A DNA stretch of 44,108 nt, taken from UHGV virus genome UHGV-0106768; one strand, given 5' to 3'. Below are positions 2,034 to 38,132 of the stretch, in pieces; within the stretch, counting starts at the first letter, position 1, and each line of letters begins with the position of its first letter. The notes below the pieces were generated by a model. It ran no database searches, had not been told where the DNA came from, and was given only the letters and a program-made list of their open reading frames with translations. The position numbers and the translations under genes were made by a program. This stretch comes from a virus.

Positions 2034-2046
2034 TAACAGCATTTTC

Positions 2047-2073
2047 AGGAGGCTTTCGAGCCTCCTTTTTTTA
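2047..2073 (+). terminator. Rho-independent terminator
   Basis: AGGAGGCT-TTCG-AGCCTCCT stem-loop followed by a T7 tract, directly after the stop at 2033. Confidence 0.85.
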
Positions 2074-2095
2074 TGCCCTGAAATATTTTCATGAA

Positions 2096-2130
2096 GCCCC
2101 CAGAAAAAATGGGGGGCGATTTTTGTTTTT
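2096..2130 (+). terminator. Second rho-independent terminator
   Basis: GCCCCC / GGGGGC stem with an A-rich loop, followed by GATTTTTGTTTTT. Confidence 0.7.
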
Positions 2131-2256
2131 GAAACAGTTTAGAAATAGAATATTTATAAAATATCCATTTAATTTAGATGATGTGAACAAGTGCAGATTA
2201 TATATCAAAGTTGAGATAAGCATAGTGCATAAAAAACAGCCCCCATTTTTTATGTA

Positions 2257-2285
2257 TGTAAAAGAGAATTCGGATATGTTATGAT
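2257..2285 (+). promoter_or_regulatory. Candidate extended -10 promoter for the long leader
   Basis: TGTAAA - 17 nt - TATGAT, with TG one base upstream of the -10, inside an AT-rich tract. The -35 is weak. Confidence 0.3.
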
Positions 2286-2340
2286 ATAGACACAGTCAAG
2301 GACAGGCACCGCCGCCCATGACTGGAAACAACCTCTATAT

Positions 2341-2460
2341 GCCGGATGCATACGGCAGAGGACGGTCATATGAGAGCAGAACTGAACACCACAGGTATAT
2401 CCCGTGTTCGGAATCTGACATCATATGGCTACTCTGTGTCATGCATCCGGCTATTTTTCT
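2341..2460 (+). promoter_or_regulatory. About 111-nt extended hairpin plus T-tract (attenuator or terminator-like) in an untranslated leader
   Basis: Five nested helices (2341-51/2441-51, 2356-60/2432-36, 2364-72/2422-30, 2377-80/2414-17, 2384-89/2404-09), then CTATTTTTCT. Confidence 0.6.
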
Positions 2461-2520
2461 GCCGCGGCATTCGGAGCATGGCAAATCGATCATTACATTT
2501 GTTAGTCAGGGCGCGCACTG

Positions 2521-2644
2521 GCGGACAGATGCTCATAACGGAAAACAATGCCTGTGGTCTGTATAGACCGGAACAGGTACCGAAAGATTTTCCGTGTGGA
2601 CATTGTCTGCCTGCGTGCCTTTTCGCAGTAAGAGCATCTGCCGC
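2521..2644 (+). ncRNA. Three-way-junction structured leader element (unclassified cis-regulatory RNA candidate)
   Basis: Closing helix 2521-2534/2632-2644 (13 bp, one bulge). Inner helices 2538-45/2588-95, 2551-55/2573-77, 2556-60/2565-69 and 2611-15/2624-28. No credible ORF. Confidence 0.5.
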
Positions 2645-2650
2645 TGAGTG

Positions 2651-2671
2651 CGTTCCTTGCAGAAAGGAACG
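2651..2671 (+). promoter_or_regulatory. RBS-sequestering hairpin
   Basis: CGTTCCTT (2651-58) pairs perfectly with AAGGAACG (2664-71). The 3' arm is the only Shine-Dalgarno-like sequence before ATG 2675. Confidence 0.6.
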
Positions 2672-2674
2672 ATT

Positions 2675-3397
2675 ATGGAAAACGTGAATGTTCAGAATGC
2701 TGCCGCTATTACCGATCAGACCACACTCGGAGAACTGCTTGCAATGCTTGACCTCGCTGATAAGGCAGGCAAGATGCCGACACCGAGAGAACTGTTTGAG
2801 ACCGCCGGTGAGACGATTGCCGACATGAACGGCTGCACGCTCTTCAGCAACGGGTTCGCTGTCTACCAGAATATCACCGGACGTACTGTTGTCTGGCTGC
2901 CTTACTGTAAGAGCTTCACCTATTACTTCGGCAAGCTCCGTGATTCCGAGAAAGACACGCTGACAGAGACCTATGAGCTGCCGGATGGATTTCTGGAAAC
3001 ACAGCCGTGGGTGATCGCAGTAACACTGATCGGCGACCATCGTGTGGAGGCAAACAGCATGAACCGCACCGGCAGCCGCAAGGATACCACAGATTATGAC
3101 AGCGCCGATAACGGCGATAAAGACGGTGATGCAGAGGAGGCTTTGGCAGATCCGTATCGCAGGGCATTCAACTGGTATGACGGACGCATGGGCGAGAATC
3201 CGCAGGATGCCGTGGAGCGCAGAGAGACACGCGAGGAGATGCTTGCAGACATGACGGACAAGCAGCGTGAAGCCTTTATTATGTACTTCAGGGATGGTAT
3301 GACGCAGGAAGAGATTGCTTCATATATAGGGGTAAGCCGTGATTCCATAAATGACAGGCTTGAAGGTGCATTGAAAAAAGCAAAAAAATATTTTTGA
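2675..3397 (+). CDS. Sigma-70 region-4-like HTH regulator (sigma-factor-like protein of the kind seen in Clostridial ICEs and phages)
   Basis: The C-terminus DKQREAFIMYFRDGMTQEEIASYIGVSRDSINDRLEGALKKAKKYF matches the region-4 HTH pattern. The start is taken at ATG 2675 after AAGGAA. The track ORF starts at GTG 2648. Confidence 0.7.
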   Translation: MENVNVQNAAAITDQTTLGELLAMLDLADKAGKMPTPRELFETAGETIADMNGCTLFSNGFAVYQNITGRTVVWLPYCKSFTYYFGKLRDSEKDTLTETYELPDGFLETQPWVIAVTLIGDHRVEANSMNRTGSRKDTTDYDSADNGDKDGDAEEALADPYRRAFNWYDGRMGENPQDAVERRETREEMLADMTDKQREAFIMYFRDGMTQEEIASYIGVSRDSINDRLEGALKKAKKYF

Positions 3398-6327: not shown

Positions 6328-9213
6328 GTGGTGATTTTATTGAGCAGACGTGTACTTTCTATCGACCTTGAGACCTACAGCGATGTTGACCTTCCGAACT
6401 GCGGTGTGTACCGCTATGTTGAGGGGGATTTTCATATCCTGCTGTTCGCATATGCATTCGATGATGAAGAAACAAAGTGTATCGACATGGCCTGCGGTGA
6501 ACAGCTTCCCGCAGAGGTTGTGGATGCCATACACAATGAAAATATCATCAAATCTGCGTGGAATGCGCAGTTTGAGCGCATCTGTCTGTCAAAATATCTC
6601 GGCATCAGGCTTTCTCCGGACTCGTGGCAATGCACGATGGTATGGGCGGCATCGCTGTCCCTGCCGCTGAAGCTGGCAACGGCAGCACAGGCTTTGAAAA
6701 CTGCACAGCAGAAAGACAGTGTCGGTGAACGGCTGATCCGCTACTTTTCGATTCCGTGTAAGCCTACCAAATCTAACGGCGGTCGCACACGCAATCTGCC
6801 GGAACACGCTCCGGAGGACTGGGCGCTGTTCAAAAGCTACTGTATTCAGGATGTGGAAACGGAACGGGATATCCGCCGAAGACTTGAAAAGTTTCCGCTG
6901 ATGCCGCAGGAATGGGATTTTTATCACATGGATCAGCGGATCAATGACCGCGGCATCCTGATCGACAGAGAGCTTGTGCAGCAGGCAATTATCTGTAATA
7001 TGGCAATGTCTGAGGAGATGACCAAACGCGCCTATGCACTGACGGGACTTGAAAATCCCAATTCTGTATCTCAGCTGAAGTCATGGCTGGAAGATCGCGG
7101 CATCGAGGTGGATTCCCTCGGCAAAAAGAATGTCGCTTCTCTGATCACAGACCTTGACAAGCACAGTGCGGACGGTGAAGCTCTGGATATGATGAAGCTG
7201 CGGTTGCAGATGGCAAAGTCCTCTGTGAAAAAGTATCAGGCGGCAGAGAGATACATCTGTCAGGACGGCAGGGCGCACGGACTGTTTCAGTTTTCCGGAG
7301 CTCAGCGAACACAGCGCTGGTGTCTTACCGGCGATCATGAAATACTGACAGATAAAGGCTGGCTCAGGCTTGATAATTGGCAGGGCGGTAAGATTGCTTG
7401 TTGGAATCCTAATCAGGAAATGGTCTCGTTCCAGAAAGCGAACGTATTGTGCTTTGAATATGACGGTCCTATCTACCGCTATGAGGACAAACGGATCGAT
7501 CAGATCAGCACGCCGGATCACAAAATGCGTGTAAAGAAACGGTATAACGGCGAGTGGACGGATGACACTGTTGGCAATATGGAAAAGTATCGTCCTTCTA
7601 TTCCGTTTACCGGACGCAGACAAACGATGCCCGGCTTGGAGCACGCAGAACTGAGGGTACTGGTGATGACGCAGGCTGACGGCAGCTATAAAGAAGATGG
7701 AATGCTCTGCTTCCATTTCAAGAAGAAAAGGAAAATAGAACGGTGCAAACATCTGCTCAGACAGGCGGGCATTTATTTCACAGTGAATGAATGCAGGACA
7801 GATGGAACAACGCAGATCAAGATTCCTTCCCGTGAGCAGCCGATGTATCTAAGAATGTTTCATAACAAGACATTTGGAATGTGGCTTCTCGATGAAAGCC
7901 CGGATGTTTTCTTTGATGAGCTTCGGTATTGGGACGGATCGCAAAGCGCCAAAAACAGTATCCAATATACCACAACGAACAAAGTGAATGCCGATATTGT
8001 TCAGGCTTTTGCTCATACAAGTGGTCGCTGTGCAAAAATGAAACCGGTCATCCGGGATAAAGAACACCCGAATTGGAGCGATGCATACTATCTCGATATA
8101 TGGCTCACTCCGAAAAACTGTCATGAAATCAGAGTGAAGCCGACTATCTCGCAATTCAGCGGCAAAATATACTGTGCTGAAACCCCAACCGGATACTTCC
8201 TTGTAAGACGTAATGGTAAAGTGTGGGTAACAGGAAACAGCGGGCGCGGCATTCAATTACAGAACCTGCCGCAGAACCACATCTCTACCCTCGATGAAGC
8301 AAGAGAACTTGTCAAAATGGGCTGCTTTGACATGATCGAAGCACTGTACGGCAATACGCCGGATATCCTGTCACAGCTTATCCGCACGATGCTCATTCCG
8401 AAGGACGGCTGTGAATTTATCGTGGCAGACTTCTCCGCCATTGAAGCGAGAGTACTTGCGTGGCTTGCCGGAGAACAGTGGCGGCTCGATGCCTTCAAGC
8501 GTGGCGAGGATATTTACTGTGCATCCGCATCGCAAATGTTCGGTGTTCCGGTCGTGAAGCACGGCATCAACGGTGAACTGCGGCAGAAAGGCAAGGTCGC
8601 AGAATTGGCCTGCGGTTACGGCGGCGGTGCCGGTGCGCTGATCTCAATGGGCGCACTGGATATGGGACTGAAAGAGGACGAACTTCCCGACATCATTTCA
8701 AGCTGGCGCGACGCAAACCCGGAGATCGTGAAATTCTGGTATGCTGTGGAAAAAGCCGCGATTGAAACAGTCAAGGATCACAATGACAGATCGGTCGGCC
8801 GGATCGGATTTCAGTTTTCAGCAAATACACTGTGGATCGTTCTTCCGTCCGGACGCAGGCTTGCCTACATCAAACCGAGATTACAGCCGAACCGCTTCGG
8901 GCGTATGGCACTGACATTTGAGGGGCTTGGTGCAAACAACAAGTGGGTGCGCGGCGAAACCTATTCCGGCAAGCTGACAGAGAACATCACACAGGCAACT
9001 GCCCGTGATCTCCTTGCAGAAGCAATGCGCCGTATAGAACTTGCAGGGCTTGGAATCGTCGGGCATGTGCATGATGAGGTCATTCTCGAAGTGCCGAAAG
9101 GACAATACACGGTCGATGATGTATGCAGCATCATGAATCAGAATCCGAAATGGGCGGAGGACTTACCGTTGTCAAGTGCAGGATATACGGGTGCATGGTA
9201 CTACAAAGATTAA
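6328..9213 (+). CDS. Family A DNA polymerase with 3'-5' exonuclease domain, interrupted by an intein
   Basis: Exo I SIDLETYSD, RT(Q)RW...SGRGIQLQNLPQ, motif A IVADFSAIEARVLAWL, motif C HVHDEV. The true start may be TTG 6340. Confidence 0.9.
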   Translation: MVILLSRRVLSIDLETYSDVDLPNCGVYRYVEGDFHILLFAYAFDDEETKCIDMACGEQLPAEVVDAIHNENIIKSAWNAQFERICLSKYLGIRLSPDSWQCTMVWAASLSLPLKLATAAQALKTAQQKDSVGERLIRYFSIPCKPTKSNGGRTRNLPEHAPEDWALFKSYCIQDVETERDIRRRLEKFPLMPQEWDFYHMDQRINDRGILIDRELVQQAIICNMAMSEEMTKRAYALTGLENPNSVSQLKSWLEDRGIEVDSLGKKNVASLITDLDKHSADGEALDMMKLRLQMAKSSVKKYQAAERYICQDGRAHGLFQFSGAQRTQRWCLTGDHEILTDKGWLRLDNWQGGKIACWNPNQEMVSFQKANVLCFEYDGPIYRYEDKRIDQISTPDHKMRVKKRYNGEWTDDTVGNMEKYRPSIPFTGRRQTMPGLEHAELRVLVMTQADGSYKEDGMLCFHFKKKRKIERCKHLLRQAGIYFTVNECRTDGTTQIKIPSREQPMYLRMFHNKTFGMWLLDESPDVFFDELRYWDGSQSAKNSIQYTTTNKVNADIVQAFAHTSGRCAKMKPVIRDKEHPNWSDAYYLDIWLTPKNCHEIRVKPTISQFSGKIYCAETPTGYFLVRRNGKVWVTGNSGRGIQLQNLPQNHISTLDEARELVKMGCFDMIEALYGNTPDILSQLIRTMLIPKDGCEFIVADFSAIEARVLAWLAGEQWRLDAFKRGEDIYCASASQMFGVPVVKHGINGELRQKGKVAELACGYGGGAGALISMGALDMGLKEDELPDIISSWRDANPEIVKFWYAVEKAAIETVKDHNDRSVGRIGFQFSANTLWIVLPSGRRLAYIKPRLQPNRFGRMALTFEGLGANNKWVRGETYSGKLTENITQATARDLLAEAMRRIELAGLGIVGHVHDEVILEVPKGQYTVDDVCSIMNQNPKWAEDLPLSSAGYTGAWYYKD
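7321..8238 (+). mobile_element. Class-1-type intein with LAGLIDADG homing-endonuclease domain inside the DNA polymerase
   Basis: Starts CLTGDHEILT and ends VWVTGN followed by Ser. Block B is TPDH. LAGLIDADG-like motifs LRVLVMTQADGS and FFDELRYWDGS. Removing it restores GAQRTQRW-SGRGIQLQNLP. Confidence 0.85.
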
Positions 9214-12806: not shown

Positions 12807-12902
12807 CAATATACAGTCTGTATGATCCACCCCTTATTGACGACAGGAAGACGGCAAAGCGGCGACAATTCGGTTACGCCGCAAACCACGGAGGTGAAAA
12901 CT

Positions 12903-13388
12903 ATGGCTCGTAAGAACAAACGCCTAAAAACAGAATACCACAGAGGGCTCGGCTTTGATCCGAGAAAATATATTACGGCACCGGTGCAGCACCACACCAT
13001 CGCTCACAAGCCGCAGCGCGGTGACATCTGGTTTGCGGATCTTGGCTGTCATCCGGATTCCAGCGTGCAGAGCGGCATCCGTCCGGTTATCATTCTCTCG
13101 AATGATATGGGCAATGCACACGCCGACACGGTCAATATCATTCCCATGACGCGGCATCTGAAAAAGCCGGAGCTGCCGTGCCATACGCATCTGTTCCCCG
13201 ACAGTATTTCCGATCTTCATCAGCATCTATATCCGTCCATGATCCTGGCGGAGCAGCTCACGACTGTCAGCAAGCATGCGCTTCGCAGCTATGCCGGACA
13301 TATCTCGGACGCCGATGCGATGAACCGTATTGAAACCGCTGTCATTGCACAGCTTTTCATTGAAAGGAGACATTCCGAATGCCTGTAA
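12903..13388 (+). CDS. PemK/MazF-fold toxin-like protein
   Basis: GGAGGTG RBS. PQRGDIWFADLG...SGIRPVIILSNDMGN...VNIIPMT matches the PemK/MazF core. No antitoxin-like ORF is adjacent. Confidence 0.65.
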   Translation: MARKNKRLKTEYHRGLGFDPRKYITAPVQHHTIAHKPQRGDIWFADLGCHPDSSVQSGIRPVIILSNDMGNAHADTVNIIPMTRHLKKPELPCHTHLFPDSISDLHQHLYPSMILAEQLTTVSKHALRSYAGHISDADAMNRIETAVIAQLFIERRHSECL

Positions 13389-28506: not shown

Positions 28507-28561
28507 GTGACACAACGGAAGGGCAAACGCCCACCGAAAAACCGAATCGGAGGATACCAAA

Positions 28562-29506
28562 ATGACTGAGAAAACCGCACAGCAGATCAACAGAATGAAG
28601 GAGCAGACCATCGGGGTTGAGATCGAGATGAACAACATCACCCGCAAGGCTGCCGCAAAGCTCGCCGCCAACTTCTTCGGCACCAGCCGCACCGAGTACA
28701 CCGCACACCGCAACGGCTACGAAACCTACAGCGCATGGGATGCACAGGGCAGAGAGTGGAAATTCCAGAAGGACGTCAGCATCGCAGGCCCCGACAGCGA
28801 AAAGTGCGAACTGGTCACACCGATCCTGCACTACGCAGACATCGAAACCCTGCAGGAGCTTGTGAGAAGGCTCAGAAAGGCAGGAGCGCGCAGTGATTAC
28901 ACGCGGGGATGTGGAGTCCACTGCCACATTGGAGCCCAGGGACACACACCGCAGACCTTGAGAAACCTCGCAAACCTGATGGCAAGCCACGAAACCCTGA
29001 TCGCCGAGGCAATCAGAGTAGACCAGAGCAGAATGCGCCGCTACTGCAGAACAGTTGACCCGAGATTCCTTGAACAGCTCAACCGCAAAAAGCCCACCAC
29101 GATGGCACAGCTTGCGGACATCTGGTACGGCGCACAGGGCTGCGAATACGGCAGAACCCACCACTACAACGACAGCCGCTATCACATGCTCAACCTCCAC
29201 GCTACCTTCACCAAAGGCACGGTCGAGTTCAGACTTTTCCAGTTCGCACCGCCTTCCAACGGCAAGCAGAACGGGCTCCACGCAGGCAAGCTCAAGAGCT
29301 ACATTCAGCTCTGCCTCGCAATGAGCCAGATGGCAAAGGACCTGCGGAGCGCCAGCCCCAAGGAACAGCAGAAGGAAAACAAAAAGTTCGCCATGCGGAC
29401 TTGGCTGATGAGAATGGGATTCATCGGGGACGAATTCGCAACCGCAAGGGAAACCCTCACCGAGAACCTTACAGGCGACAACAGCTTCCGCTTCGGCAGA
29501 CCTTAA
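28562..29506 (+). CDS. Amidoligase (glutamine-synthetase-like COOH-NH2 ligase family of phages and ICEs)
   Basis: N-terminus TIGVEIEMNNITRKAAAKLAANFFG and the core CGVHCHIG...GTVEFRLFQ match my recollection of the 'putative amidoligase enzyme' family. Confidence 0.7.
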   Translation: MTEKTAQQINRMKEQTIGVEIEMNNITRKAAAKLAANFFGTSRTEYTAHRNGYETYSAWDAQGREWKFQKDVSIAGPDSEKCELVTPILHYADIETLQELVRRLRKAGARSDYTRGCGVHCHIGAQGHTPQTLRNLANLMASHETLIAEAIRVDQSRMRRYCRTVDPRFLEQLNRKKPTTMAQLADIWYGAQGCEYGRTHHYNDSRYHMLNLHATFTKGTVEFRLFQFAPPSNGKQNGLHAGKLKSYIQLCLAMSQMAKDLRSASPKEQQKENKKFAMRTWLMRMGFIGDEFATARETLTENLTGDNSFRFGRP

Positions 29507-29542
29507 AGCCTGCCCTGCGGGGCGGAAGAACAAGCGGAACGT

Positions 29543-29670
29543 CACGGCGGCGCACACAGCACCCTCATCGCCACGTGTGGGGCGGAAGGGTATCCTCCGA
29601 ACACATACCCAACTCAGTCAACCGAGCCACACAGCGCAAATGTAGGCAAGGCATAAAATGCACAACATAC
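29543..29670. repeat. GC-rich intergenic S-module, copy 1 (divergent, hairpin arms apparently in inverted order)
   Basis: CACGGCGGCGCACAC...CCACGTGTGGGGCGG...GGCAAGGCATAAAATGCACAACA shares blocks with the copies at 32.2, 33.1 and 34.4 kb. Confidence 0.5.
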
Positions 29671-29709
29671 GGCACAGAATCGCCCTCGATGATCTGTTCA
29701 TTTACTCGC

Positions 29710-29738
29710 TTGATAATGCCGCCGAAAAGAGTTAACAT
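29710..29738 (+). promoter_or_regulatory. Cassette promoter 3: TTGATA-17-TAACAT
   Basis: Exact 17-nt spacer. Leader variant CTACCGCAAGG. AGGAG RBS. Confidence 0.65.
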
Positions 29739-29777
29739 GGCACTACCGCAAGGAAAAAACGCAAAGGAGAACATAGC

Positions 29778-30239
29778 ATGAACAAGAAAAAATACTACAT
29801 AGCCTACGGCAGCAACCTCAACATCCGCCAGATGCGGTTCCGCTGCCCAGGCGCAAAGCCCATCGGCATTTCCGCGATTCCTGACTACGAACTGCTCTTC
29901 AAGAGCAGCAAGACGGGAGCGTACCTCACCATCGAGCCGAAGGACGGCGGGCTTGTTCCGGTCGCCGTGTGGGAAGTGACAGCCGACGATGAGAAGCACC
30001 TCGACATCTACGAGGGCTACCCGAACTTCTACTACAAAAAAGAAGTACGCCTGCCGATCAAGCTGGCAAACGGCAAGACCAAAAAGGTCACGGCATTTGT
30101 CTACATCATGCACGAGGAGCGTGAGATTGCGATCCCGTCAATGACCTACATCCGCACCTGCGAGGAAGGCTACCGCAACTTCGGATTTGATGTGAAGTAC
30201 CTTGACAGGGCATACATGAGAAGCACAAAGGAGGACTGA
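29778..30239 (+). CDS. Gamma-glutamyl cyclotransferase / AIG2-like protein
   Basis: YYIAYGSNLNIRQMRFRCPGA N-terminus, and ...YEGYPNFY, typical of the GGCT/AIG2 fold. Confidence 0.7.
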   Translation: MNKKKYYIAYGSNLNIRQMRFRCPGAKPIGISAIPDYELLFKSSKTGAYLTIEPKDGGLVPVAVWEVTADDEKHLDIYEGYPNFYYKKEVRLPIKLANGKTKKVTAFVYIMHEEREIAIPSMTYIRTCEEGYRNFGFDVKYLDRAYMRSTKED

Positions 30240-30241
30240 AA

Positions 30242-30445
30242 ATGAAAGAACAGGTTTTTGAGAAGCGTACATGTCCGCAATGCGGACGCACCTACACCGA
30301 GCGTCCTGCCCTATCCCGCTACGACAACGACACGATCATCTGCCCGGACTGCGGCACGAGGGAGGCACTCGAAAGCATGGGCATCAGCATCGAGGAACAG
30401 GACAAGATCCTCGGCATCATCCACGAGAAGTACAACGGCGAATAA
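30242..30445 (+). CDS. Small zinc-ribbon protein
   Basis: CPQCG...CPDCG pairs. Starts 2 nt after the upstream stop. Confidence 0.55.
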   Translation: MKEQVFEKRTCPQCGRTYTERPALSRYDNDTIICPDCGTREALESMGISIEEQDKILGIIHEKYNGE

Positions 30446-30516
30446 GGCGACATAAAGGGGCGTTACAGCCCCTTTCCGCATTCTCAGGGATAACTTTATC
30501 CCCCACTTTCCGGGCG

Positions 30517-30565
30517 TGACACGGCGCGTTCTGGCGCAAACTGTGGGCTTGTGTATATGTACCTG
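30517..30565. repeat. S-module, partial copy
   Basis: TGACACGGCGCGTTCTGGCGCAAACTGTGGGCTTGTGTATATGTACC matches the 3' half of the other copies. Confidence 0.5.
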
Positions 30566-30617
30566 TTCAGCTTGCTGAAAACGGCGATTCTTCTACGATT
30601 TATTTTGCATATAGGCG

Positions 30618-30646
30618 TGGACATATCGCCGGGATCATGGTAATAT
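30618..30646 (+). promoter_or_regulatory. Cassette promoter 4: TGGACA-17-TAATAT
   Basis: Exact 17-nt spacer. AT-rich upstream block TTTATTTTGCA. Leader hairpin GGGC-AGACA-GCCC. Confidence 0.65.
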
Positions 30647-30704
30647 GCTACACAACGGCAGGGGCAGACAGCCCACCGGAATTCATAACATGGAGGATAC
30701 GAAC

Positions 30705-31175
30705 ATGAACGAAAGCTACTTTGAGGAGATGACCTTCCAGTGCGCCGCCTATGAACGCGCCAAAAAGGAGCGCGCCGAGCGCAAGGCTCAGATTGCCGAA
30801 GCCCACGGCTACGACAGCCCGGAGATGGACGCTTGGTACGCTGAGGAGAAGGCGGCGGGTCCTTACCCCTACAGCGGCGGTGAGATGAAAGCCTACTGGG
30901 TGTACAAGATGCGCCGCGAGAACGACGGTGACGAGTTCGAGATGAGCGATTACTGCTGGGACAAGGAATTCCACGATTTCATCGAAACGCTCCGCAAGCT
31001 AGGCATCACCGAGTTCACGATCACCAATCAGAGCACGGCGCTGATGGAGAACATCTACGGATTTATTGCAGAAGGCTGCACGATGGTCGGAACGCACACC
31101 ATCACCAAGAAGAGCCTGCGCTGGAGCGAGGAAGAATACGAAACGGCACAGGGCATCCTTTTCAAGGTGAACTGA
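30705..31175 (+). CDS. Hypothetical protein
   Basis: GGAGGATACGAAC-ATG. 156-aa ORF. Confidence 0.6.
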   Translation: MNESYFEEMTFQCAAYERAKKERAERKAQIAEAHGYDSPEMDAWYAEEKAAGPYPYSGGEMKAYWVYKMRRENDGDEFEMSDYCWDKEFHDFIETLRKLGITEFTITNQSTALMENIYGFIAEGCTMVGTHTITKKSLRWSEEEYETAQGILFKVN

Positions 31176-31183
31176 TATCGACA

Positions 31184-31207
31184 GGAGCAGGGCTTCGGCT
31201 CTGCTCC
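31184..31207 (+). terminator. GC-rich TTCG-loop hairpin after a cassette gene
   Basis: GGAGCAGGGC-TTCG-GCTCTGCTCC. Near-identical copy at 33632-33655. A C/T-rich tail follows, but no clean U-tract. Confidence 0.5.
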
Positions 31208-31293
31208 CCCTCCCCCTTTTCCTCATGTGTAACTCCTACAATACGAAAGGCTGAGATCGGCGATTCTTCTACGTTTTATTTTGCACATAGGCG

Positions 31294-31322
31294 TGGACTT
31301 ATCAGCAGGATCATGGTAATAT
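31294..31322 (+). promoter_or_regulatory. Cassette promoter 5: TGGACT-17-TAATAT
   Basis: Exact 17-nt spacer. Upstream block shared with promoter 4. Leader hairpin GGGC-AGAAC-GCCT. Confidence 0.65.
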
Positions 31323-31377
31323 GTGACACAACGGAAGGGCAGAACGCCTACCGAAAAACGAAACGGAGGATAACACC

Positions 31378-31698
31378 ATGAACCCCTACACACTGAGAAA
31401 GAGCCTGAACCTGATTGATGCCAACACGGCGATCACCCGCGAGGACTTCGAGAGCCTCTTCTGCAAGACTGCAGAGCGTGTCACCTTTACCTTCAACGGT
31501 TGGGACGGCAAGAGCTATGATGGCGAGAGCCGCAGCGGTTACGTTTACCGCACCATCATCGAGGGCTACGAGAATGTGAGATTCGTTAAGGTCGGCAAGG
31601 GACTGCATTACATCGATGAGGACAGCAGCATTACCGAGAAGGCTACGGGCATCGCCCACAAGGAAGCAGAGTGGCTGGTCGATGTGAAGAGAGCATAA
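31378..31698 (+). CDS. Hypothetical protein
   Basis: GGAGGATAACACC-ATG. 106-aa ORF. Confidence 0.6.
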   Translation: MNPYTLRKSLNLIDANTAITREDFESLFCKTAERVTFTFNGWDGKSYDGESRSGYVYRTIIEGYENVRFVKVGKGLHYIDEDSSITEKATGIAHKEAEWLVDVKRA

Positions 31699-31763
31699 GC
31701 AAAACAGCGGAGCCCTTCCTGCGGGGAGGGCTTACCGCAGAAAAAACATGGAGGTTTACGAAC

Positions 31764-32147
31764 ATGAGTACGAATTCAAGAGTCGGAATCCTGCATCAGG
31801 ACGGCGCCACGGAGACAATCTACTGCCATTGGGACGGCTACCCCGAACACCAGATGCCCATCCTCACCGAGCATTATAACACCGCCGAGAAGGTCAAGGC
31901 ACTGCTTGCCCTTGGAGACATCAGCATCCTCGGCGAGCGCCTTGCTCCCGATGCGGATGAGCCGCACAGCTTTGAAAAGCCTGCCGATGGTGTGACGGTT
32001 GCTTACCACCGCGACCGCAAAGAGCCGATGCAGCCTGCGGTCACCCACAAGAGCGTTGTTTCCCTGATGAGCGATGACTGGGGCATTCCGTATTACTACC
32101 TTTTCGATGAGGAAAAAGGAGCATGGCTTCCGCCGACCGAGGACTGA
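31764..32147 (+). CDS. Hypothetical protein
   Basis: GGAGG RBS before ATG 31764. 127-aa ORF. Confidence 0.6.
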   Translation: MSTNSRVGILHQDGATETIYCHWDGYPEHQMPILTEHYNTAEKVKALLALGDISILGERLAPDADEPHSFEKPADGVTVAYHRDRKEPMQPAVTHKSVVSLMSDDWGIPYYYLFDEEKGAWLPPTED

Positions 32148-32170
32148 TAGGTTCAGCCCTGCGGTGCTGA

Positions 32171-32290
32171 CTTGCCCCACGTTGTCCTTTGTGCGGTTTT
32201 CCTGCGATAAGCTTGCCCCTGCGGAAAGCCGCCTCACACGGCGCGTTTGTGTGCCTCCTGTGGGCTTGGTGCTATGTATACAACAAATGG
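32171..32290. repeat. S-module, copy 3
   Basis: CTTGCCCCACGTTG...GCTTGCCCCTGCGGAAAGCCGCCTCACACGGCGCGTTTGTGTGCCTCCTGTGGGCTTGG...TATACAACAA. Confidence 0.6.
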
Positions 32291-32327
32291 CGCAGATACG
32301 CCGATTTTGTTCTGAACATTTAGCCGC

Positions 32328-32356
32328 TTGCTATTCCGGAAAGATCATGGTAATAT
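32328..32356 (+). promoter_or_regulatory. Cassette promoter 6: TTGCTA-17-TAATAT
   Basis: Exact 17-nt spacer. Leader identical in its core to that of promoter 2 (ACACAACGGAAGGGCAAACGCCCACCGAA). Confidence 0.7.
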
Positions 32357-32412
32357 GCTACACAACGGAAGGGCAAACGCCCACCGAATACAAAACACGG
32401 AGGTAAACCACC

Positions 32413-32778
32413 ATGACAAAGAAGGAAATGAAAGCCGCAGTTGACAAGCTGAAGATGCTGCAGAACGGCAAAGCCGCCCTTGAGGGAATGACCGAAGCGG
32501 ACTGCCTTGAGCTTTTCGGGATCAGCAGAGCGCAGGCACTTGCAAACACAAACGCCGCCCTTGCCAAAACCGAGCAGGAGATTTTCAGAGCCGAGCATCC
32601 GCTGACAGGCATCGACAAACAGCTCTTCGAGATCGCAGCAAAGCACCTGATCACGGTGCAGGAGCGCGGAGACCTTGAAGCCCGCCACTGCGACAGCGAG
32701 GACTTCATCGAGGTTTCGGTCTGGGGGCTGGAAGCCGCCCTCAAGGATGCCTACGAGGCAGGACGCAAGAGCAAGTAA
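32413..32778 (+). CDS. Hypothetical protein
   Basis: GGAGGTAAACCACC-ATG. 121-aa ORF. Confidence 0.6.
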   Translation: MTKKEMKAAVDKLKMLQNGKAALEGMTEADCLELFGISRAQALANTNAALAKTEQEIFRAEHPLTGIDKQLFEIAAKHLITVQERGDLEARHCDSEDFIEVSVWGLEAALKDAYEAGRKSK

Positions 32779-32843
32779 CCAAACGGAACAGCGCAGCCCT
32801 TCCGCAGGGAGGAGGGGCTGCCAATCCCGAAGGAGGAAAGAAC

Positions 32844-33023
32844 ATGGATACATACGCACAGCTTGAAATGCTGACCGCAGTCATCGCAAACCTGTCGGCC
32901 ACGGGAACATGGACGGAGCGAGAAGTGATGGAAACGCTGCTGGATGTCTTTGAACCGAAGGAGCTTGAACAGCTCGGCTACGGCGACTGCGTGAACGCAT
33001 ACTTGGAAGAGTACGGCGGATAG
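32844..33023 (+). CDS. 59-aa hypothetical protein (below the ORF-track cut-off)
   Basis: GAAGGAGGA RBS. My own translation is MDTYAQLEMLTAVIANLSATGTWTEREVMETLLDVFEPKELEQLGYGDCVNAYLEEYGG. Confidence 0.5.
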   Translation: MDTYAQLEMLTAVIANLSATGTWTEREVMETLLDVFEPKELEQLGYGDCVNAYLEEYGG

Positions 33024-33034
33024 CGACGACACAC

Positions 33035-33145
33035 GCACCACGTTGCCTCGTGTGGGGCGGTGCCGGGGAGATGCGTACAGCTTGCCCCTGCGAAAAGCCG
33101 CCTTACACGGCGCGTTCTGGCGCGTCCTATACGATGTACAATTCC
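33035..33145. repeat. S-module, copy 4
   Basis: CACCACGTTGCCTCGTGTGGGGCGG...GCTTGCCCCTGCGAAAAGCCGCCTTACACGGCGCGTTCTGGCGCG. An 11-bp stem joins 33050-60 and 33098-108. Confidence 0.6.
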
Positions 33146-33193
33146 GCCCGACTTCCCGCCTCATGTTTGTCACATTTATTTTGCAGACAGACG

Positions 33194-33222
33194 TGGACTT
33201 TTCTGCGAAAAGACGGTAATAT
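33194..33222 (+). promoter_or_regulatory. Cassette promoter 7: TGGACT-17-TAATAT
   Basis: Exact 17-nt spacer. Leader variant GTGACTACCGCAAGAGAAGCGG, as for promoter 1. Confidence 0.65.
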
Positions 33223-33269
33223 GTGACTACCGCAAGAGAAGCGGAATCAATCAAAAGGAGCGAATCTAC

Positions 33270-33623
33270 ATGAAAATTCTGGTATGCGAACCCGGCAAGC
33301 ACCCCTACGTCAAGGACATCGAGTCGGGGCTGGAGAACCTTCAGCACGAGGTGGACGGACTGATTCAGGCCCTCTACCCATTTTCCGAAGAGGCGGCTGT
33401 TGTGTGCAACGAAGAAGGGCTGTTCCGCGATGACCTCGAATGGAACAGAACGGTCGATCCCTATGGTCCGATCAAGGGAACATTCTTCATTTGTGGGCTC
33501 GGCTTTGAAGATTTTACAGGACTGACCGATGAACAGATCGAAAAGTACACTAAGCTCTTCTGGCCTCCTGAGCTTTTCATCCCGACACCGAACGGCATGG
33601 TGGTGCTTCACATTGTGGAATGA
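33270..33623 (+). CDS. DUF3846 domain protein
   Basis: MKILVCEPGKHPYVKDIESGLENLQHEVDGLIQALYPF...VVCNEEG...GTFFICG pattern. Confidence 0.7.
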   Translation: MKILVCEPGKHPYVKDIESGLENLQHEVDGLIQALYPFSEEAAVVCNEEGLFRDDLEWNRTVDPYGPIKGTFFICGLGFEDFTGLTDEQIEKYTKLFWPPELFIPTPNGMVVLHIVE

Positions 33624-33631
33624 CCGCAACA

Positions 33632-33655
33632 GGGGCAGGGCTTCGGCTCTGCTCC
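33632..33655 (+). terminator. GC-rich TTCG-loop hairpin after a cassette gene (copy of 31184-31207)
   Basis: GGGGCAGGGC-TTCG-GCTCTGCTCC, with two G-U pairs. Confidence 0.5.
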
Positions 33656-33726
33656 GCACCATTCCCCGGTCATAATGTACACAACTGAACGCCGAAAAAT
33701 GCAGAAATGATCGTGATTACTCACGC

Positions 33727-33755
33727 TTGATAATGTAGGCAAGAAGAGTTATACT
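33727..33755 (+). promoter_or_regulatory. Cassette promoter 8: TTGATA-17-TATACT
   Basis: Exact 17-nt spacer. Leader hairpin GGGC-GGAAA-GCCC. Confidence 0.7.
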
Positions 33756-33812
33756 GTGTACAACGGAAGGGCGGAAAGCCCAGCCGAAAACGAAAATGCG
33801 GAGGTACACACC

Positions 33813-33992
33813 ATGAAAACGAAGCAGGAACTGATCGAGAAGGCAAAGAAAGAGTGGGGCGAGACTTGGAACGAGGGCATGATCGAGTACGATGCCGAGT
33901 ACAACGAGTACATCGTCTGGGTAGGCAAGCCGGACATCTACAAAGCCTTCTTCGATGCCGACACCCTCAGATGCATTGGCACGAAGTGCTGA
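33813..33992 (+). CDS. 59-aa hypothetical protein
   Basis: GGAGGTACACACC-ATG. The track ORF 33756..33992 contains it. Confidence 0.55.
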   Translation: MKTKQELIEKAKKEWGETWNEGMIEYDAEYNEYIVWVGKPDIYKAFFDADTLRCIGTKC

Positions 33993-34000
33993 GAACAACC

Positions 34001-34018
34001 GCCGCCCTTCGGGGCGGC
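34001..34018 (+). terminator. GC-rich TTCG-loop hairpin
   Basis: GCCGCCC-TTCG-GGGCGGC. No U-tract. Confidence 0.4.
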
Positions 34019-34047
34019 ACAACACCAATACTAAGGAGGACATTTAC

Positions 34048-34321
34048 ATGAGCGAGAACACAGAAAAGCGCGATGCAGCCGAAGAACTAAGAACTTACCG
34101 ATGCACAGGCAGACCGCAACGATGACATCTACGAGGCAGCTTTTGAATTCTGCAAGGTGCTGACCGAGAACCCCGACCTCGAATGGGACATGGCGTTCCT
34201 CGGTGAGATCGCCGACCTTGCCGCTGGCATCATGACCGAGCAGGGACACAAGGTGCGGTTCCCCAGTGTGGTCACCGAGCAGGACGGCACGCAGTACATT
34301 GAAGAATACTACGGCGGCTGA
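34048..34321 (+). pseudogene. Small cassette gene disrupted by a frameshift near codon 14
   Basis: A strong AAGGAGGA RBS precedes ATG 34048. Frame 1 (MSENTEKRDAAEELRTYR...) stops at 34123-25. The +1 frame is open from 34091 to TGA 34319-21 and reads LTDAQADRNDDIYEAAFEFCKVLTENPDLEWDMAFLGEIADLAAGIMTEQGHKVRFP... Confidence 0.55.
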
Positions 34322-34361
34322 TCGGCAAAACGGAGCAGTCCTTCTGCGGAGGGGCTGTTCC

Positions 34362-34485
34362 ACGCCACGTTCGCTTGTGTGGGGGGCTTACGGCTTTCTG
34401 CGGATATCTTGCCCCGCGATAAAAGCCGCCCACACGGCGCATTTGTGTGCCTCCTGCGGCAAGGCATAATATGTACAACAACCGA
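34362..34485. repeat. S-module, copy 5
   Basis: ACGCCACGTTCGCTTGTGTGGGGGGC...CTTGCCCCGCGATAAAAGCCGCCCACACGGCGCATTTGTGTGCCTCCTGCGGCAAGGCATAATATGTACAACAA. Confidence 0.6.
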
Positions 34486-34522
34486 CAAAAAATCACCTTG
34501 CACATTCTGGTAGTTTAGCCGC

Positions 34523-34551
34523 TTGATATATCTGCCGAAAAGAGTTATAGT
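34523..34551 (+). promoter_or_regulatory. Cassette promoter 9: TTGATA-17-TATAGT
   Basis: Exact 17-nt spacer. Leader GTGTACAACGGAACGGGAAACCGAG. Confidence 0.7.
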
Positions 34552-34607
34552 GTGTACAACGGAACGGGAAACCGAGCCGAAAACTACGAAAGAACGAGGT
34601 AAACACT

Positions 34608-34844
34608 ATGTGGCACGAAGGCACGATTCTGGCACCGACCAAGGAAGGCAAGACGGTGGTTCACTACTGGGCAAAGGTCTACGACGAGGGCAGCCAGTAC
34701 GGCATCAACGAGGGCAGAATCAGTAAACTGACACTCAAGGAGAATGGCAAGGTCATCTACAACTACGACAGAGGCGAGGATGTACCCGAGCAGAACGAGG
34801 CTGCGGAGATTGCCCTTGCGATCCTGATGTACGAGTACAAGTAA
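34608..34844 (+). CDS. Hypothetical protein
   Basis: 78-aa ORF after cassette promoter 9. GAGGT RBS. Confidence 0.6.
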   Translation: MWHEGTILAPTKEGKTVVHYWAKVYDEGSQYGINEGRISKLTLKENGKVIYNYDRGEDVPEQNEAAEIALAILMYEYK

Positions 34845-34933
34845 ATAGAACGGTCGGTGGGCGGTAGCATTAAGCCGCCCATCCAAACCAAGACGGACAC
34901 ACATATAAATTCAAGGTGGATATACATAGGAGA

Positions 34934-34961
34934 GGCTTGCAGTTTTGCAGGCCTTTTCTTT
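34934..34961 (+). terminator. Rho-independent terminator closing the accessory array
   Basis: GGCTTGCA-GTTT-TGCAGGCC (one G-U pair), followed by TTTTCTTT. Confidence 0.6.
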
Positions 34962-34992: not shown

Positions 34993-35466
34993 ATGGCTCA
35001 GAGAGGCAGAAAACCAACGCCTACGGCGATCAAAGAGCTGGAAGGCAATCCGGGCAAGCGTCCGCTGAATGATGCAGAGCCGAAGCCGGAACGCAAGGCA
35101 CCGCCCTGTCCGAAGTGGCTGGAGCCCGAAGCAAAAAAGGAATGGCGCAGGCTGTCAAAGCAACTGGAGCAGATTGGTGTGCTGACCGAGGTCGATCAGG
35201 CGGCATTCGCATCCTACTGTCAGGCATACGCACGATGGAAAGAAGCCGAGGAATTCATGACCCAGCACGGCACGATCGTAAAAACAAAATCAGGTTACTG
35301 GCAGCAGGTTCCGCAGGTATCCATTGCGCAAACTTATCTGAAGATCATGAACAAGATCGCAGAGCAGTTTGGCCTGACCCCGGCGGCAAGAAGCCGTATC
35401 ACTGCCGGCGCAGATATGAAAAACGCTGCCGTTGACGATATGGATGAACTTCTCGGAGGTGGCTGA
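34993..35466 (+). CDS. terS: Terminase small subunit, P27 family
   Basis: MAQRGRKPTPTAIKELEGNPGKRPLN N-terminus typical of the P27 family. GGAAGGAG RBS. Confidence 0.85.
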   Translation: MAQRGRKPTPTAIKELEGNPGKRPLNDAEPKPERKAPPCPKWLEPEAKKEWRRLSKQLEQIGVLTEVDQAAFASYCQAYARWKEAEEFMTQHGTIVKTKSGYWQQVPQVSIAQTYLKIMNKIAEQFGLTPAARSRITAGADMKNAAVDDMDELLGGG

Positions 35467-38132
35467 TGGCGAGAACGGCAAAGGCAAGAGAAAGACCTGC
35501 CAACTATCCGAAACTGAAGGATTATAAACCGACACGCTTTATGCTGCCGGAATCGCACTACGATGCGGCAAAGGCTGACCGAGCTGTGCGGTTCATCGAG
35601 AATCTCTGCCATACCAAAGGACGCTGGGCAGGCAAACCGTTCTGGCTGCTTCCGTGGCAGGAACAGATCATCCGGGATATTTTCGGCATCGTCAAAGAGG
35701 ACGATATGCGGCAATTTCGTACCGCCTATGTCGAAATTCCAAAGAAAAATGGGAAGCAGCTTGCACTGGATACACCGATCCCGACTCCGCAGGGATTCAC
35801 CAATATGGGAGATCTGAAGGTCGGAGATACAGTATTCGATGAAAACGGCATTCCGTGCCATGTGGTTGCGAAAAGTCCTGTGGATGATACAGAGCAAGCC
35901 TACAAGCTGACCTTCAAGGACGGCACCTCGATCATTGCCGGGGAAAGGCATCTGTGGAACTGTCAGTATATTTACGGCAAACGCAAGGATGTTCTCTGGA
36001 CGACCGGCGAGATCTATCGCAGGACAACGGAATACAGACAGCGTTTTTCCGACAGACCACAGACAAAGCGGGATTCCCTTATCCGAATTCCGGTGTGCGG
36101 TGTCCTTCAGACAGAAGCGGCAGTTTTACCGATTGATCCGTATCTGTACGGCTACTGGCTCGGAAACGGTAATGTGACCATGCCGGAGATCACTGTTCGG
36201 ACGGAGGATGTCGAGGATATCATCTCGAATATTCCGTATAAGGTACACAACCGTTATCCGCAGAAATGCGGCGGCAGTGAGATCATAAAGTACAATGAAC
36301 TGAAAGCAGTACTACTTGACAGCTTCCGTGAAAAGAAGATCCGACCAGAATATCTGAGGGCATCCGCAGAGCAGAGATGGGCATTACTGCAAGGGCTTAT
36401 GGATTCGGACGGCTGTATCGGTGAACGCAAAGGGCAAAGTGTGTATGTCACAACGCTGCGAGAGCTGGCGCTTTCCGTCAGAGAACTGCTGTGGTCACTC
36501 GGCATCAAAAATGCAGTGAAATGTGAGCCTTCTACACGGCATGGGTGGCCGACCGGCGAGATTTTGTATATCGTCCGTTTTACAACCTTTGATGACCAAC
36601 CGACATCAAGGCTTAAACGCAAAAATACACGCACACAGGCGCGGTTAAAGGAAACTCGCTCCTGTTTTCATTATCTGCTGGATATTCAACCTGTAAATCA
36701 TCCTGTAAAAATGCAGTGCATTCAGGTGGACAGTCCGAGTCACCAATATCTCGCAGGACCGTCATTTGTGCCTACGCACAACAGTGAGCTTGCAGCGGCA
36801 ATTGCACTGTATCTGCTCTACGCCGACAACGAGCCGTCTGCTGAGGTCTACGGCGCTGCTGCTGATCGTGGGCAGGCATCCATTGTATTCGATGTCGCCA
36901 AAAGAATGGTTGAGATGACACCGGCACTTCTGAAACGCTCAAAAATCATGGCGGCGACAAAGCGTCTGGTGAATTACAGTAATGTTGGCTTTTATCAGGT
37001 GCTTTCAGCGGAAGTCGGTACAAAGCACGGATTGAATGTATCCGGTCTGGTTTTGGATGAACTTCATGCCCAACCGAACCGCAGCCTTGTGGATGTTCTC
37101 ACAAAGGGTTCCGGTGATGCCCGTACTCAGCCGCTGTACTTCCTGATCACAACCGCCGGAACGGATCGCAACAGCATCTGCTACGAGTATCACACGAAAG
37201 CAAAAGATATTCTGGACGGCAGGCGCATTGATCCGTCCTTCTATCCTGTGATCTACGGCTTGAACGATGATGACGACTGGAACGCAGAGGAGTCATGGTA
37301 TAAGGCAAATCCCTCGCTCGGATACACTATCGCCATCGACCGAGTCCGCGATGCTCACCGGGAAGCCCTTACAAATCCCGCTGAAGAAAATGTATTCCGT
37401 CAGCTGAGGCTTGACCAGTGGGTAGGCAGTGCGGTGGCATGGATTCCGGAGCATATCTACGACAGGGGCAATCTTCCGATCGACCTCGAAAAGCTCCGGG
37501 GACGGGAGTGCTACGCAGGTCTTGACCTATCCAGCACATCGGATATCACGGCATTTGTGCTGGTGTTCCCTCCGCTGCATGACGGCGAGAAATACATCGT
37601 TGTCCCGCACTTCTGGCTGCCGAGAGAAACGCTCGATTTACGAGTACGGCGAGACCATGTTCCCTACGATGTATGGGAGCGCATGGGATTATTTCATATC
37701 ACCGAGGGCAATGTGGTCGATTACAATTTCGTGCGGAAAACGATCAACGAGCTGCACACGATGTACAACATCAAGGAAATTGCTGCCGACCGCTGGAATG
37801 CCACACAGCTTATCACAGACCTTGAGGGAGACGGATTTACCGTTGTTCCGATGGGCATGGGCTTCAAGGATATGTCCCCGCCGATGAAGGAACTGTACAA
37901 GCTCATACTCGAAGGGCAGTTTATCCACGGCGGCAACCCTGTACTCCGCTGGATGGCAGGAAATGTGGTCGCTGAAATTGATGCAGCGGAGAACATCAAA
38001 CCAAGTAAAAAGAAAAGTACAGAAAAGATTGACGGTATCGTGGCATGGATCATGGCACTTGACCGCTGCATCCGCCACGAAATGCAGGGCAGTGTCTATG
38101 ACGAACCCGGCCACGATCTTGTGGTCATCTGA
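35466..38132 (+). CDS. terL: Terminase large subunit interrupted by an intein in the Walker A motif
   Basis: PKKNGK / SELAAAIALYLL flank the insert. Walker B LVLDELH. C-terminal nuclease region. ATGA overlap with terS. Confidence 0.9.
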   Translation: MARTAKARERPANYPKLKDYKPTRFMLPESHYDAAKADRAVRFIENLCHTKGRWAGKPFWLLPWQEQIIRDIFGIVKEDDMRQFRTAYVEIPKKNGKQLALDTPIPTPQGFTNMGDLKVGDTVFDENGIPCHVVAKSPVDDTEQAYKLTFKDGTSIIAGERHLWNCQYIYGKRKDVLWTTGEIYRRTTEYRQRFSDRPQTKRDSLIRIPVCGVLQTEAAVLPIDPYLYGYWLGNGNVTMPEITVRTEDVEDIISNIPYKVHNRYPQKCGGSEIIKYNELKAVLLDSFREKKIRPEYLRASAEQRWALLQGLMDSDGCIGERKGQSVYVTTLRELALSVRELLWSLGIKNAVKCEPSTRHGWPTGEILYIVRFTTFDDQPTSRLKRKNTRTQARLKETRSCFHYLLDIQPVNHPVKMQCIQVDSPSHQYLAGPSFVPTHNSELAAAIALYLLYADNEPSAEVYGAAADRGQASIVFDVAKRMVEMTPALLKRSKIMAATKRLVNYSNVGFYQVLSAEVGTKHGLNVSGLVLDELHAQPNRSLVDVLTKGSGDARTQPLYFLITTAGTDRNSICYEYHTKAKDILDGRRIDPSFYPVIYGLNDDDDWNAEESWYKANPSLGYTIAIDRVRDAHREALTNPAEENVFRQLRLDQWVGSAVAWIPEHIYDRGNLPIDLEKLRGRECYAGLDLSSTSDITAFVLVFPPLHDGEKYIVVPHFWLPRETLDLRVRRDHVPYDVWERMGLFHITEGNVVDYNFVRKTINELHTMYNIKEIAADRWNATQLITDLEGDGFTVVPMGMGFKDMSPPMKELYKLILEGQFIHGGNPVLRWMAGNVVAEIDAAENIKPSKKKSTEKIDGIVAWIMALDRCIRHEMQGSVYDEPGHDLVVI
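35757..36782 (+). mobile_element. Class-3-like intein (Gln1, Trp-Cys-Thr triad) with LAGLIDADG homing endonuclease in terL
   Basis: Starts QLALDTPIPTPQGF and ends FVPTHN followed by Ser. Block B is GERHLW (W codon 35955-57). Block F is MQCIQVD (C codon 36717-19). Block G is PTHN. LAGLIDADG-like YGYWLGNGN and LLQGLMDSDG. Confidence 0.8.

Follow-up and report, generated by a model that had tools for sequence, protein, structure and literature searches.

REPs stabilise the upstream mRNA, and the early mRNAs of phage T7 contain intercistronic RNase III sites. Such sites are also present in the early mRNAs of the Bacillus phage SP82, according to the part of PMC4838370 that cites its references 19 and 20. 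In T4-type phages, "mobile regulatory cassettes" called PeSLs (promoter-early stem-loops) have been described (PMC2839356, PMC4122927). The REP/BIME repeats are extragenic imperfect palindromes located on the transcribed strand, at the 3' ends of genes (PMC1525189, PMC3333891). REPs are also recombination junctions, and their loops are targeted by the IS3-family elements IS1397 and ISKpn1 (PMC1525189). The repeat described here, the S-module, resembles these known intergenic palindromes and does not open a long-standing question. It is a real, previously unannotated and lineage-restricted repeat, with a putative function.

The window (UHGV-0106768, the whole stretch of 44,108 nt that was analysed) is a phage genome in which the + strand carries every gene. 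The left 27 kb codes for an exonuclease, an Enc34-type ssDNA-binding protein, a DNA polymerase, a helicase, a primase, NrdD and two DNA methylases, as well as for a sigma-70 region 4 protein and a PemK/MazF-domain protein. The former (2648–3397, 249 aa) showed sigma-70 region 4 only, and the latter (12822–13388, 188 aa, with a PemK/MazF toxin domain) lies within the replication module. Either of the two could act on the repeated promoter/GTACAAC units described below; no link between these proteins and the units was found. In the DNA polymerase ORF (6328–9213, 961 aa), the polymerase matches were confined to residues ~640–960, and residues 332–657 matched PhoH-like and ribonucleotide-reductase PHROGs; this middle part could correspond to an intein or to an inserted domain. 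In terL, about 700 bp (35961–36660) were exchanged for ~145 nt in three relatives (L007, L022 and L006). By reading, the TerL protein contains LAGLIDADG-like motifs (LLQGLMDSDG), which suggests an intein or a homing-endonuclease insertion, polymorphic in the lineage. The nearest deposited relatives are the "Ca. Heliusvirales" gut phages of Clostridia, with which only the amidoligase and GGACT genes are common, at ~70% identity. The host of the S-module is an uncultured, Ruminococcus-type, Heliusvirales-like siphophage.

Approximately nine small cassettes occupy the region from 28.4 to 34.9 kb. Their genes (amidoligase, GGACT, zinc ribbon, DUF7698, DUF6900, DUF3846, DUF7678 and ORFans) are for the most part DUFs. 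Each cassette possesses its own promoter of the sigma-70 type, close to the consensus (TTGATA-17-TATAGT, for instance), together with a Shine-Dalgarno sequence and a 5' leader that is conserved; eight strong promoter units were recognised in the region by the repeat search and the promoter scan. Every cassette mRNA leader (28512–28554, 30655–30700, 31328–31370, 32362–32404, 33760–33802 and 34556–34600) begins with ACAACGG, continues with a small stem-loop (CGG-AGGGC-loop-GCCC-CCG) and then with GAAAA...GGAGG. The letters of the stem differ among cassettes (GGGC/GCCC, CGG/CCG, CCGC/GCGG), and the stem-loop may be a 5'-end stabiliser. GC-rich hairpins were visible 3' of nearly all stop codons of the region (31709–31735, 32794–32820, 34002–34017, 29509–29527, 32155–32170 and 34332–34361), many with a CTGCGG or CCGCAG loop and none with a U-tract. 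The sole clear + strand hairpin followed by a T-run, by reading, was at ~34929–34960, just before terS, and no other intrinsic terminator was convincing. The second gene of the 33.8-kb cassette (34049–34321) showed an apparent frameshift near 34095–34125, where MSENTEKRDAAEEL... ends at the stop 34125 and the downstream part (...DDIYEAAFEFCKVLTENPDLEW...) runs on in a different frame; the gene is either a pseudogene or affected by a sequencing error.

Three good copies of the S-module, two degraded copies and one extra 3' fragment were found in the window by repeat search, MAFFT and an nhmmer profile (Table 1), and the profile confined the five copies to 29.5–34.5 kb. The core ACACGGCGCRTTYKKKKGC occurred four times, compared to 0.38 occurrences expected from shuffles. 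A previous sequence-only reading had listed five copies. The repeat proved real and all five were recovered, but those at 29.5 and 30.5 kb are weak, and divergent or partial. The 30.5-kb copy had been taken for a 3' half only: the 5' arm is the only part missing, with an ordinary GC hairpin (30455–30475) in its place, but the copy reaches back to ~30476 with a degenerate loop. Its orthologue in a relative (u83 in L006) retains CTGCGGATAACTTGCCCC. The 29.5-kb copy had been described as inverted, wrongly, because GTGTGGGGCGG comes before CCGAGCCACAC, an arm order identical to that of the other copies, and nhmmer aligned it on the + strand. This copy has near-identical relatives (u126 and u121) and its subfamily is common in related phages. 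The arms at 33050–33060 and 33098–33108 do pair as the reading had it, with nine Watson-Crick and two G-U pairs enclosing 37 nt. The 32.2-kb hairpin showed a weak stability (z about −0.8 to −1.8). Each copy, as had also been seen, is located after a cassette stop codon or 3' hairpin and ahead of the next promoter. Several cassette junctions in the window are devoid of S-module.

Table 1. Position of the S-modules, their parts and associated features in the window and, for the IS, in related contigs.
Feature	Position	Strand	Remarks
S-module, divergent copy (29.5 kb)	29560–29674	+	nhmmer 29571–29674, E 0.006, weak; "GGGTATCCTCCGA" subfamily
29.5-kb copy, hairpin ACGTGT...ACACAG	29573–29634	+	
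29.5-kb copy, arms	29575–29585, then 29622–29632	+	GTGTGGGGCGG, then CCGAGCCACAC
29.5-kb copy, promoter-unit box	29645–29666	+	GGCAAGGCATAAAATGCACAAC
S-module, partial copy (30.5 kb)	30476–30565	+	nhmmer 30519–30560, E 0.013, weak; repeat family D8
30.5-kb copy, degenerate apical-loop box	30487–30503	+	GGGATAACTTTATCCCC
30.5-kb copy, core	30518–30537	+	GACACGGCGCGTTCTGGCGC
30.5-kb copy, box	30554–30563	+	TATATGTACC
S-module copy on which the sequence-only reading centred (32.2 kb)	32167–32294	+	nhmmer E 1.5e-28
32.2-kb copy, CCACGTT box	32177–32183	+	
32.2-kb copy, shortened 53-nt hairpin	32189–32241	+	GCGGTTTTCC / GGAAAGCCGC; degenerate basal stem
32.2-kb copy, second small hairpin	32240–32255	+	GGCGCGTTTGTGTGCC
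32.2-kb copy, box	32270–32284	+	TGCTATGTATACAAC
S-module copy (33.0 kb)	33030–33154	+	nhmmer E 3e-25
33.0-kb copy, CCACGTT box	33038–33044	+	
33.0-kb copy, 63-nt hairpin	33048–33110	+	−35.9 kcal/mol; u37, interior-shuffle z −3.4
33.0-kb copy, GGCGCGTTCTGGCGCGT	33109–33125	+	
33.0-kb copy, box	33132–33145	+	CGATGTACAATTCC
Two cassettes between the 33.0- and 34.4-kb modules	33114–34398	+	absent from L007, L005 and L002
Isolated 3' box, without S hairpin	33670–33684	+	CATAATGTACACAAC; between ordinary hairpin 33633–33655 and next promoter
S-module, top-scoring copy (34.4 kb)	34355–34490	+	nhmmer E 1.7e-38
34.4-kb copy, CCACGTT box	34365–34371	+	
34.4-kb copy, 63-nt hairpin	34375–34437	+	
34.4-kb copy, GGCGCATTTGTGTGCC	34436–34451	+	
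34.4-kb copy, box	34458–34479	+	GGCAAGGCATAATATGTACAAC
terS	start 34993	+	
terL	35466–38132	+	888 aa
462-aa ORF	start 38142	+	portal gene by position only
IS part in L045	1–123		
IS part in L071	1–124		
IS part in L072	1–123		
IS part in L076	~1–150		

IMG/VR, searched by a pattern scan and with terS as the anchor, provided 97 related loci. The profile detected 241 S-module copies in 76 of them (1–7 per locus), corresponding to 127 unique sequences and to 70 clusters at 88% identity. Mixed-strand loci were never observed, and 195 out of 195 copies were on the gene strand in the terS-oriented loci. Copies at orthologous positions were stable across relatives. When one genome for each of 185,579 species was scanned, a single true locus was found, a contig of an uncultured Ruminococcus MAG (L106) with three copies; the other eight matches were chance matches in high-GC genomes. 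The module had no match in GenBank phages or in PLSDB plasmids. Rfam gave no gathering-threshold match over the whole window, nor any for the modules (29400–34700) when E values as high as 10 were allowed, ARAGORN found no tRNA or tmRNA, and the Heliusvirales paper makes no mention of intergenic repeats. The S-module family is undescribed and restricted to one phage lineage. In this it differs from REPs, which are 20–40 nt in length, reach hundreds of copies in a bacterial genome and go with RAYT transposases. The palindrome of the S-module measures 60–64 nt plus flanks, does not form a set of many short chromosomal palindromes with a RAYT, and is essentially absent from bacterial chromosomes; no RAYT or Y1/HUH gene was seen among the 32 larger phage ORFs scanned.

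The S-module, roughly 130 nt long, is a composite of a hairpin unit joined to a promoter unit, on the upstream side of the latter. The 5' two-thirds are made of a CCACGTT box, a 60–64-nt imperfect palindrome (CYGTGTGGGG...CCCCACACRG) with the apical loop GGATAACTTGCCCC, as well as a short GC hairpin. CATAAT-N-GTACAAC, the 3' third, corresponds to the upstream box of the promoter unit of the next cassette, and the repeat search tied this box to the downstream promoter within repeat family D7. The box that exists alone, at 33670–33684, shows this third to be part of the promoter unit. Over 32 divergent copies the blocks CCACGTT, GTGT...ACAC, CTTG in the loop and GGCGC were invariant. The 3' arm GCGGAAARCCGCCCCACACGG is conserved and the 5' arm varies by subfamily (GGGGGCTTACGGCTTT, GCGGTTTTCC, GGGGCTTTTC or GGCAT); whichever the 5' arm, it pairs with this 3' arm, the register varying as well. 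Ordinary GC hairpins take the same position in the intergenic regions lacking a module, and chimeras were observed in which such hairpins are fused to the 3' halves of modules. Small + strand ORFs overlapping three copies (32189–32323, 33043–33219 and 34379–34513) share "...LPLRKAA.HGAF...", which merely reflects conserved DNA: single-nucleotide indels break the frame (hairpins of 62, 63 or 64 nt; CCGCCCACAC versus CCGCCCCACAC) and a coding role was therefore rejected. A coding sequence on the − strand was equally discarded, GGAGG-N8-ATG being present only in the GCGCATTT variant.

We propose, with about even confidence, that the S-module is a REP/PeSL-like composite intercistronic hairpin spacer, which would buffer the transcripts between cassettes and offer homology for cassette shuffling. 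An insulator or RNA 3'-end barrier is the most plausible, putative function. The module is taken to be transcribed, because it is always on the coding strand and the preceding gene-end hairpins have no U-tract; it would then be at the end of the mRNA of the upstream cassette. There, the long hairpin would most likely constitute a barrier to 3'-exonucleases and/or a point of processing by double-strand RNases or of attenuation. Barrier or processing would uncouple neighbouring cassettes equipped with a promoter. The S-module is dispensable, as several junctions have none and two copies are badly degraded. Its organisation is close to that of the PeSLs: both are composite motifs of ~100 bp, repeated between genes, in which a stem-loop stands beside a promoter of the sigma-70 type, and both cluster in a plastic part of the genome made up of small accessory genes. 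The sequence is unrelated, however, and the host phylum and the phage type are different. The S hairpin is much longer (60–64 nt), with a conserved loop, and stands ~100 bp from the strong promoter; only around one cassette junction in two has it. For PeSLs, a terminator activity has been demonstrated, as well as mini-circles.

The segment from CYGTGT to ACACRG measured 60–64 nt in all 44 sequence clusters (63 nt in 26 of them) and folded to about −25 kcal/mol. It was more stable than dinucleotide shuffles of the whole hairpin (mean z −2.9, with 66 out of 92 below −2) and than shuffles of the interior in which the 6-bp anchors were kept (mean z −2.0, with 20 out of 44 below −2). The gain was limited to this segment, as whole modules folded no better than shuffles (z −0.3 to −1.2). 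No significant covariation was found with MAFFT and RNAalifold or by pair counts in 30 diverse copies compared to shuffles. RNAalifold retained just six basal pairs; the nine-pair basal stem was 93.6% paired, yet it was equalled by 199–466 of 500 column shuffles on every measure. The interior helices are in different registers in each subfamily, which explains the lack of a single consensus structure and of formal covariation, and the structure was judged by folding each sequence against its shuffles, not by a covariance model.

These foldings bear on a first alternative, in which the module has no function of its own and represents inherited intergenic debris, resulting from old duplications of a terminator-hairpin-plus-promoter spacer that hitch-hiked with the cassettes. 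The hairpin would then persist through the slow decay of palindromes and the homogenisation of copies by recombination, and its constant length could result from recent common ancestry, not from selection. The covariation and whole-module results are in agreement with such an origin, as are the tolerance of degraded copies at 29.5 and 30.5 kb and of junctions without module, the restriction to one phage lineage and the existence of breakpoints at all gene boundaries. We nevertheless hold it to be rather unlikely: the stability is kept across subfamilies with differing 5' arms and interiors, including when only the interior is shuffled, four blocks have stayed invariant in copies otherwise so divergent, and the module persists in 76 loci.

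Two of the roles put forward by the sequence-only reading were not supported. The S hairpin is not a canonical terminator, which would be a GC-rich hairpin immediately followed by a U-tract: the stem is followed by CGCGTTTGTG or CGCGTTCTGG, and the terminator scan was silent at the S hairpins, calling just a 5-bp hairpin at 32288–32303, outside the S hairpin. Nor is a small-RNA gene supported, as no promoter was found upstream of the module, and there is no Rfam match and no significant covariation. Pairings of the attenuator type (CCACG with GTGTGG; CACAC with a downstream GTGTG) were considered and rejected, no terminator being present downstream.

The comparison of the two strands gave the following picture. 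The two basal pairs were U-G 22 times and never C-A, and G-U pairs amounted to 105 on the + strand versus 64 on the − strand. In one subfamily, a 12-bp local hairpin with five G-U pairs folded to −23 to −30 kcal/mol on the + strand and to −10 to −16 kcal/mol on the − strand. This hints at the + strand RNA as the selected form of the hairpin. The overall hairpin energy was about equal between strands (the + strand more stable in 39 cases, the − strand in 48), which leaves room for a purely DNA-level palindrome.

It is possible, but unlikely, that the hairpin is a specific site of RNA processing or regulation, a substrate for the RNase III of the host or bound by the MazF/PemK-like protein of the phage, where read-through transcripts would be cut into cassette-sized mRNAs. 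The predicted geometry of the S helix is compatible with an RNase III processing site: irregular, ~20–24 bp in length with little variation, interrupted by internal loops and located between cistrons devoid of U-tract terminators. In phages T7 and SP82, too, sequence-related irregular hairpins of ~50–60 nt are found between co-transcribed genes, often just upstream of promoters, and the SP82 RNase III sites are documented as non-native targets in the part of PMC4838370 relying on references 19 and 20. Cleavage was demonstrated for these sites, to which the S hairpin has no sequence similarity. The conservation of the loop and flanks, the existence of a phage protein with a PemK/MazF domain and the recurrence of GTACAAC wherever a cassette mRNA is predicted to begin would also fit a processing site. 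However, RNase III requires no conserved loop sequence, the overall stability is without strand asymmetry, and the MazF-like protein is not tied to the module.

The 3' box, as had been noticed in the sequence-only reading, matches the −10/+1 part of the promoters, and this in all eight cassette promoters, which lie ~75–95 bp further downstream; the full promoter is just outside the module as first delimited. This resemblance, the TTG-containing hexamer 16–18 bp upstream of the box in most variants and the sigma-70 region 4 protein encoded by the phage would suit a control region acting at the DNA level, namely a weak upstream promoter (TTGTGT-16-CATAAT) and/or an operator (TGTACA or TGTGACACA palindromes), to which a phage regulator such as the sigma-region-4 protein might bind. 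We find this improbable, as the promoter scan called none of these boxes, the box without hairpin between 33.0 and 34.4 kb leaves the 5' two-thirds of the module unexplained, and inverted arms ~44 bp apart are atypical of protein-binding geometry.

The most informative features of the S-module are the clean chimeric junctions and the targeting by an IS. The suggestion that the module is a recombination substrate received direct support from the chimeric modules present at the junctions of cassette deletions or replacements in relatives. In three of these (L007, L005 and L002), the collinearity with the window is interrupted after 33113 and restored at 34399, with one chimeric module at the junction, in which ~41 nt are in common. 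Two distinct chimeras were observed, with the crossover in AAAAGCCGCC (33092–33101 / 34421–34430) or in ACACGGCGC (33105–33113 / 34432–34440), which are the two longest identical stretches of the 33.0- and 34.4-kb copies. In another relative (L022), the segment 30709–34409 is replaced and the junction is in the module loop. A second deletion in L002 has its first limit at 32254, within the 32.2-kb copy. This deletion (window 32255–32868 versus L002 4395–4397) goes from after GTGTGC into the ORF 32844–33023 with a 3-nt microhomology, and is an illegitimate event, not a module-to-module one. The modules are mosaic, the same loop and 3'-arm type being associated with several 5' and 3' types. In relatives, the synteny breakpoints are grouped at gene boundaries in general, and not at the modules only. 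Exchange at the modules looks homology-driven and not site-specific, because the crossovers occurred at several positions, in the longest identical blocks. The conserved blocks demonstrably serve as crossover points. Similarly, the indels between close relatives that involve PeSLs leave a single chimeric motif, with crossovers in or near the stem-loop. At the DNA level, the invariant blocks of 8–10 bp represent a portable homology for deleting, replacing and recombining cassettes.

Five different module copies (in L045, L071, L072, L076 and L109) carried an IS3-family element within the apical loop, and both orientations of the insert were seen. It is a single element (OrfA with HTH_Tnp_1/HTH_28, OrfB with rve; ends TGATATAATCCCC... 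and ...GGGGGCGGGTCA), of which a full copy was found in L109 (~1403–3212). The insertion point in the loop was GGA/TAAC/TTG or equivalent. The first four contigs begin within the IS; L109 shows the two junctions, and a 3-bp duplication is probable there. The IS was found twice more (L108 and L110), outside modules. The five loops recall the targeting of REP loops by IS3-family elements (PMC1525189), with a sampling partly biased, as four of the five IS-bearing contigs came from the terS-anchored sample. The module loop, if extrudable, would be a preferred landing site for this element.

A bolder hypothesis is that the S hairpin is an actively recognised structure-specific site, as extruded DNA or folded RNA, promoting the exchange of cassettes between co-infecting phages. 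It appears very unlikely. If true, it would amount to a version of the integron attC/cassette system carried by phages and independent of an integrase, in which an IS3-family transposase targets the loop and the exchanged genes are promoter-equipped accessory or anti-defence cassettes. The attC sites are also imperfect palindromes with a variable interior at each cassette boundary, but the fixed crossover, the IntI integrase and the promoterless cassettes of integrons have no equivalent here: crossovers are dispersed and follow homology, neither an integron integrase nor a tyrosine recombinase turned up in the scan of the 32 larger ORFs, the cassettes have their own promoters, and reading of the sequence revealed no R/L core-site organisation. 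A site dedicated to recombination or mobility, either an attC-like folded site or a non-autonomous MITE- or REPIN-like element, is the least credible explanation of all: an imperfect palindrome at cassette boundaries, with asymmetric bulges and an interior that varies, the chimeric modules where indels are joined and a loop that is a transposase target would agree with it, but it is disfavoured by the dispersed crossovers coinciding with the longest identical blocks, by the cassette promoters, by the Pfam and PHROG scans, in which 32 of the larger ORFs, none of them downstream of terS, yielded no gene for an integrase, a RAYT or an HUH protein, by the terminal inverted repeats and target duplications not being seen, by the stability of orthologous copies across relatives and by the near absence of the module from bacterial genomes.

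If the S-module is, as we propose, a composite intercistronic hairpin spacer, a Firmicutes gut/rumen phage lineage shares the PeSL design of T4-like phages. Portable spacers made of a hairpin and a promoter would insulate small accessory genes and permit their gain, loss and reshuffling through short homology. The accessory genes concerned are those for the amidoligase, the GGACT enzyme, DNA methylases and many DUFs. The link between intergenic palindromes and the target choice of IS3-family elements, which is of the REP type, would extend to phage DNA. The S-module is a useful marker of cassette boundaries in the comparison of these abundant uncultured phages.
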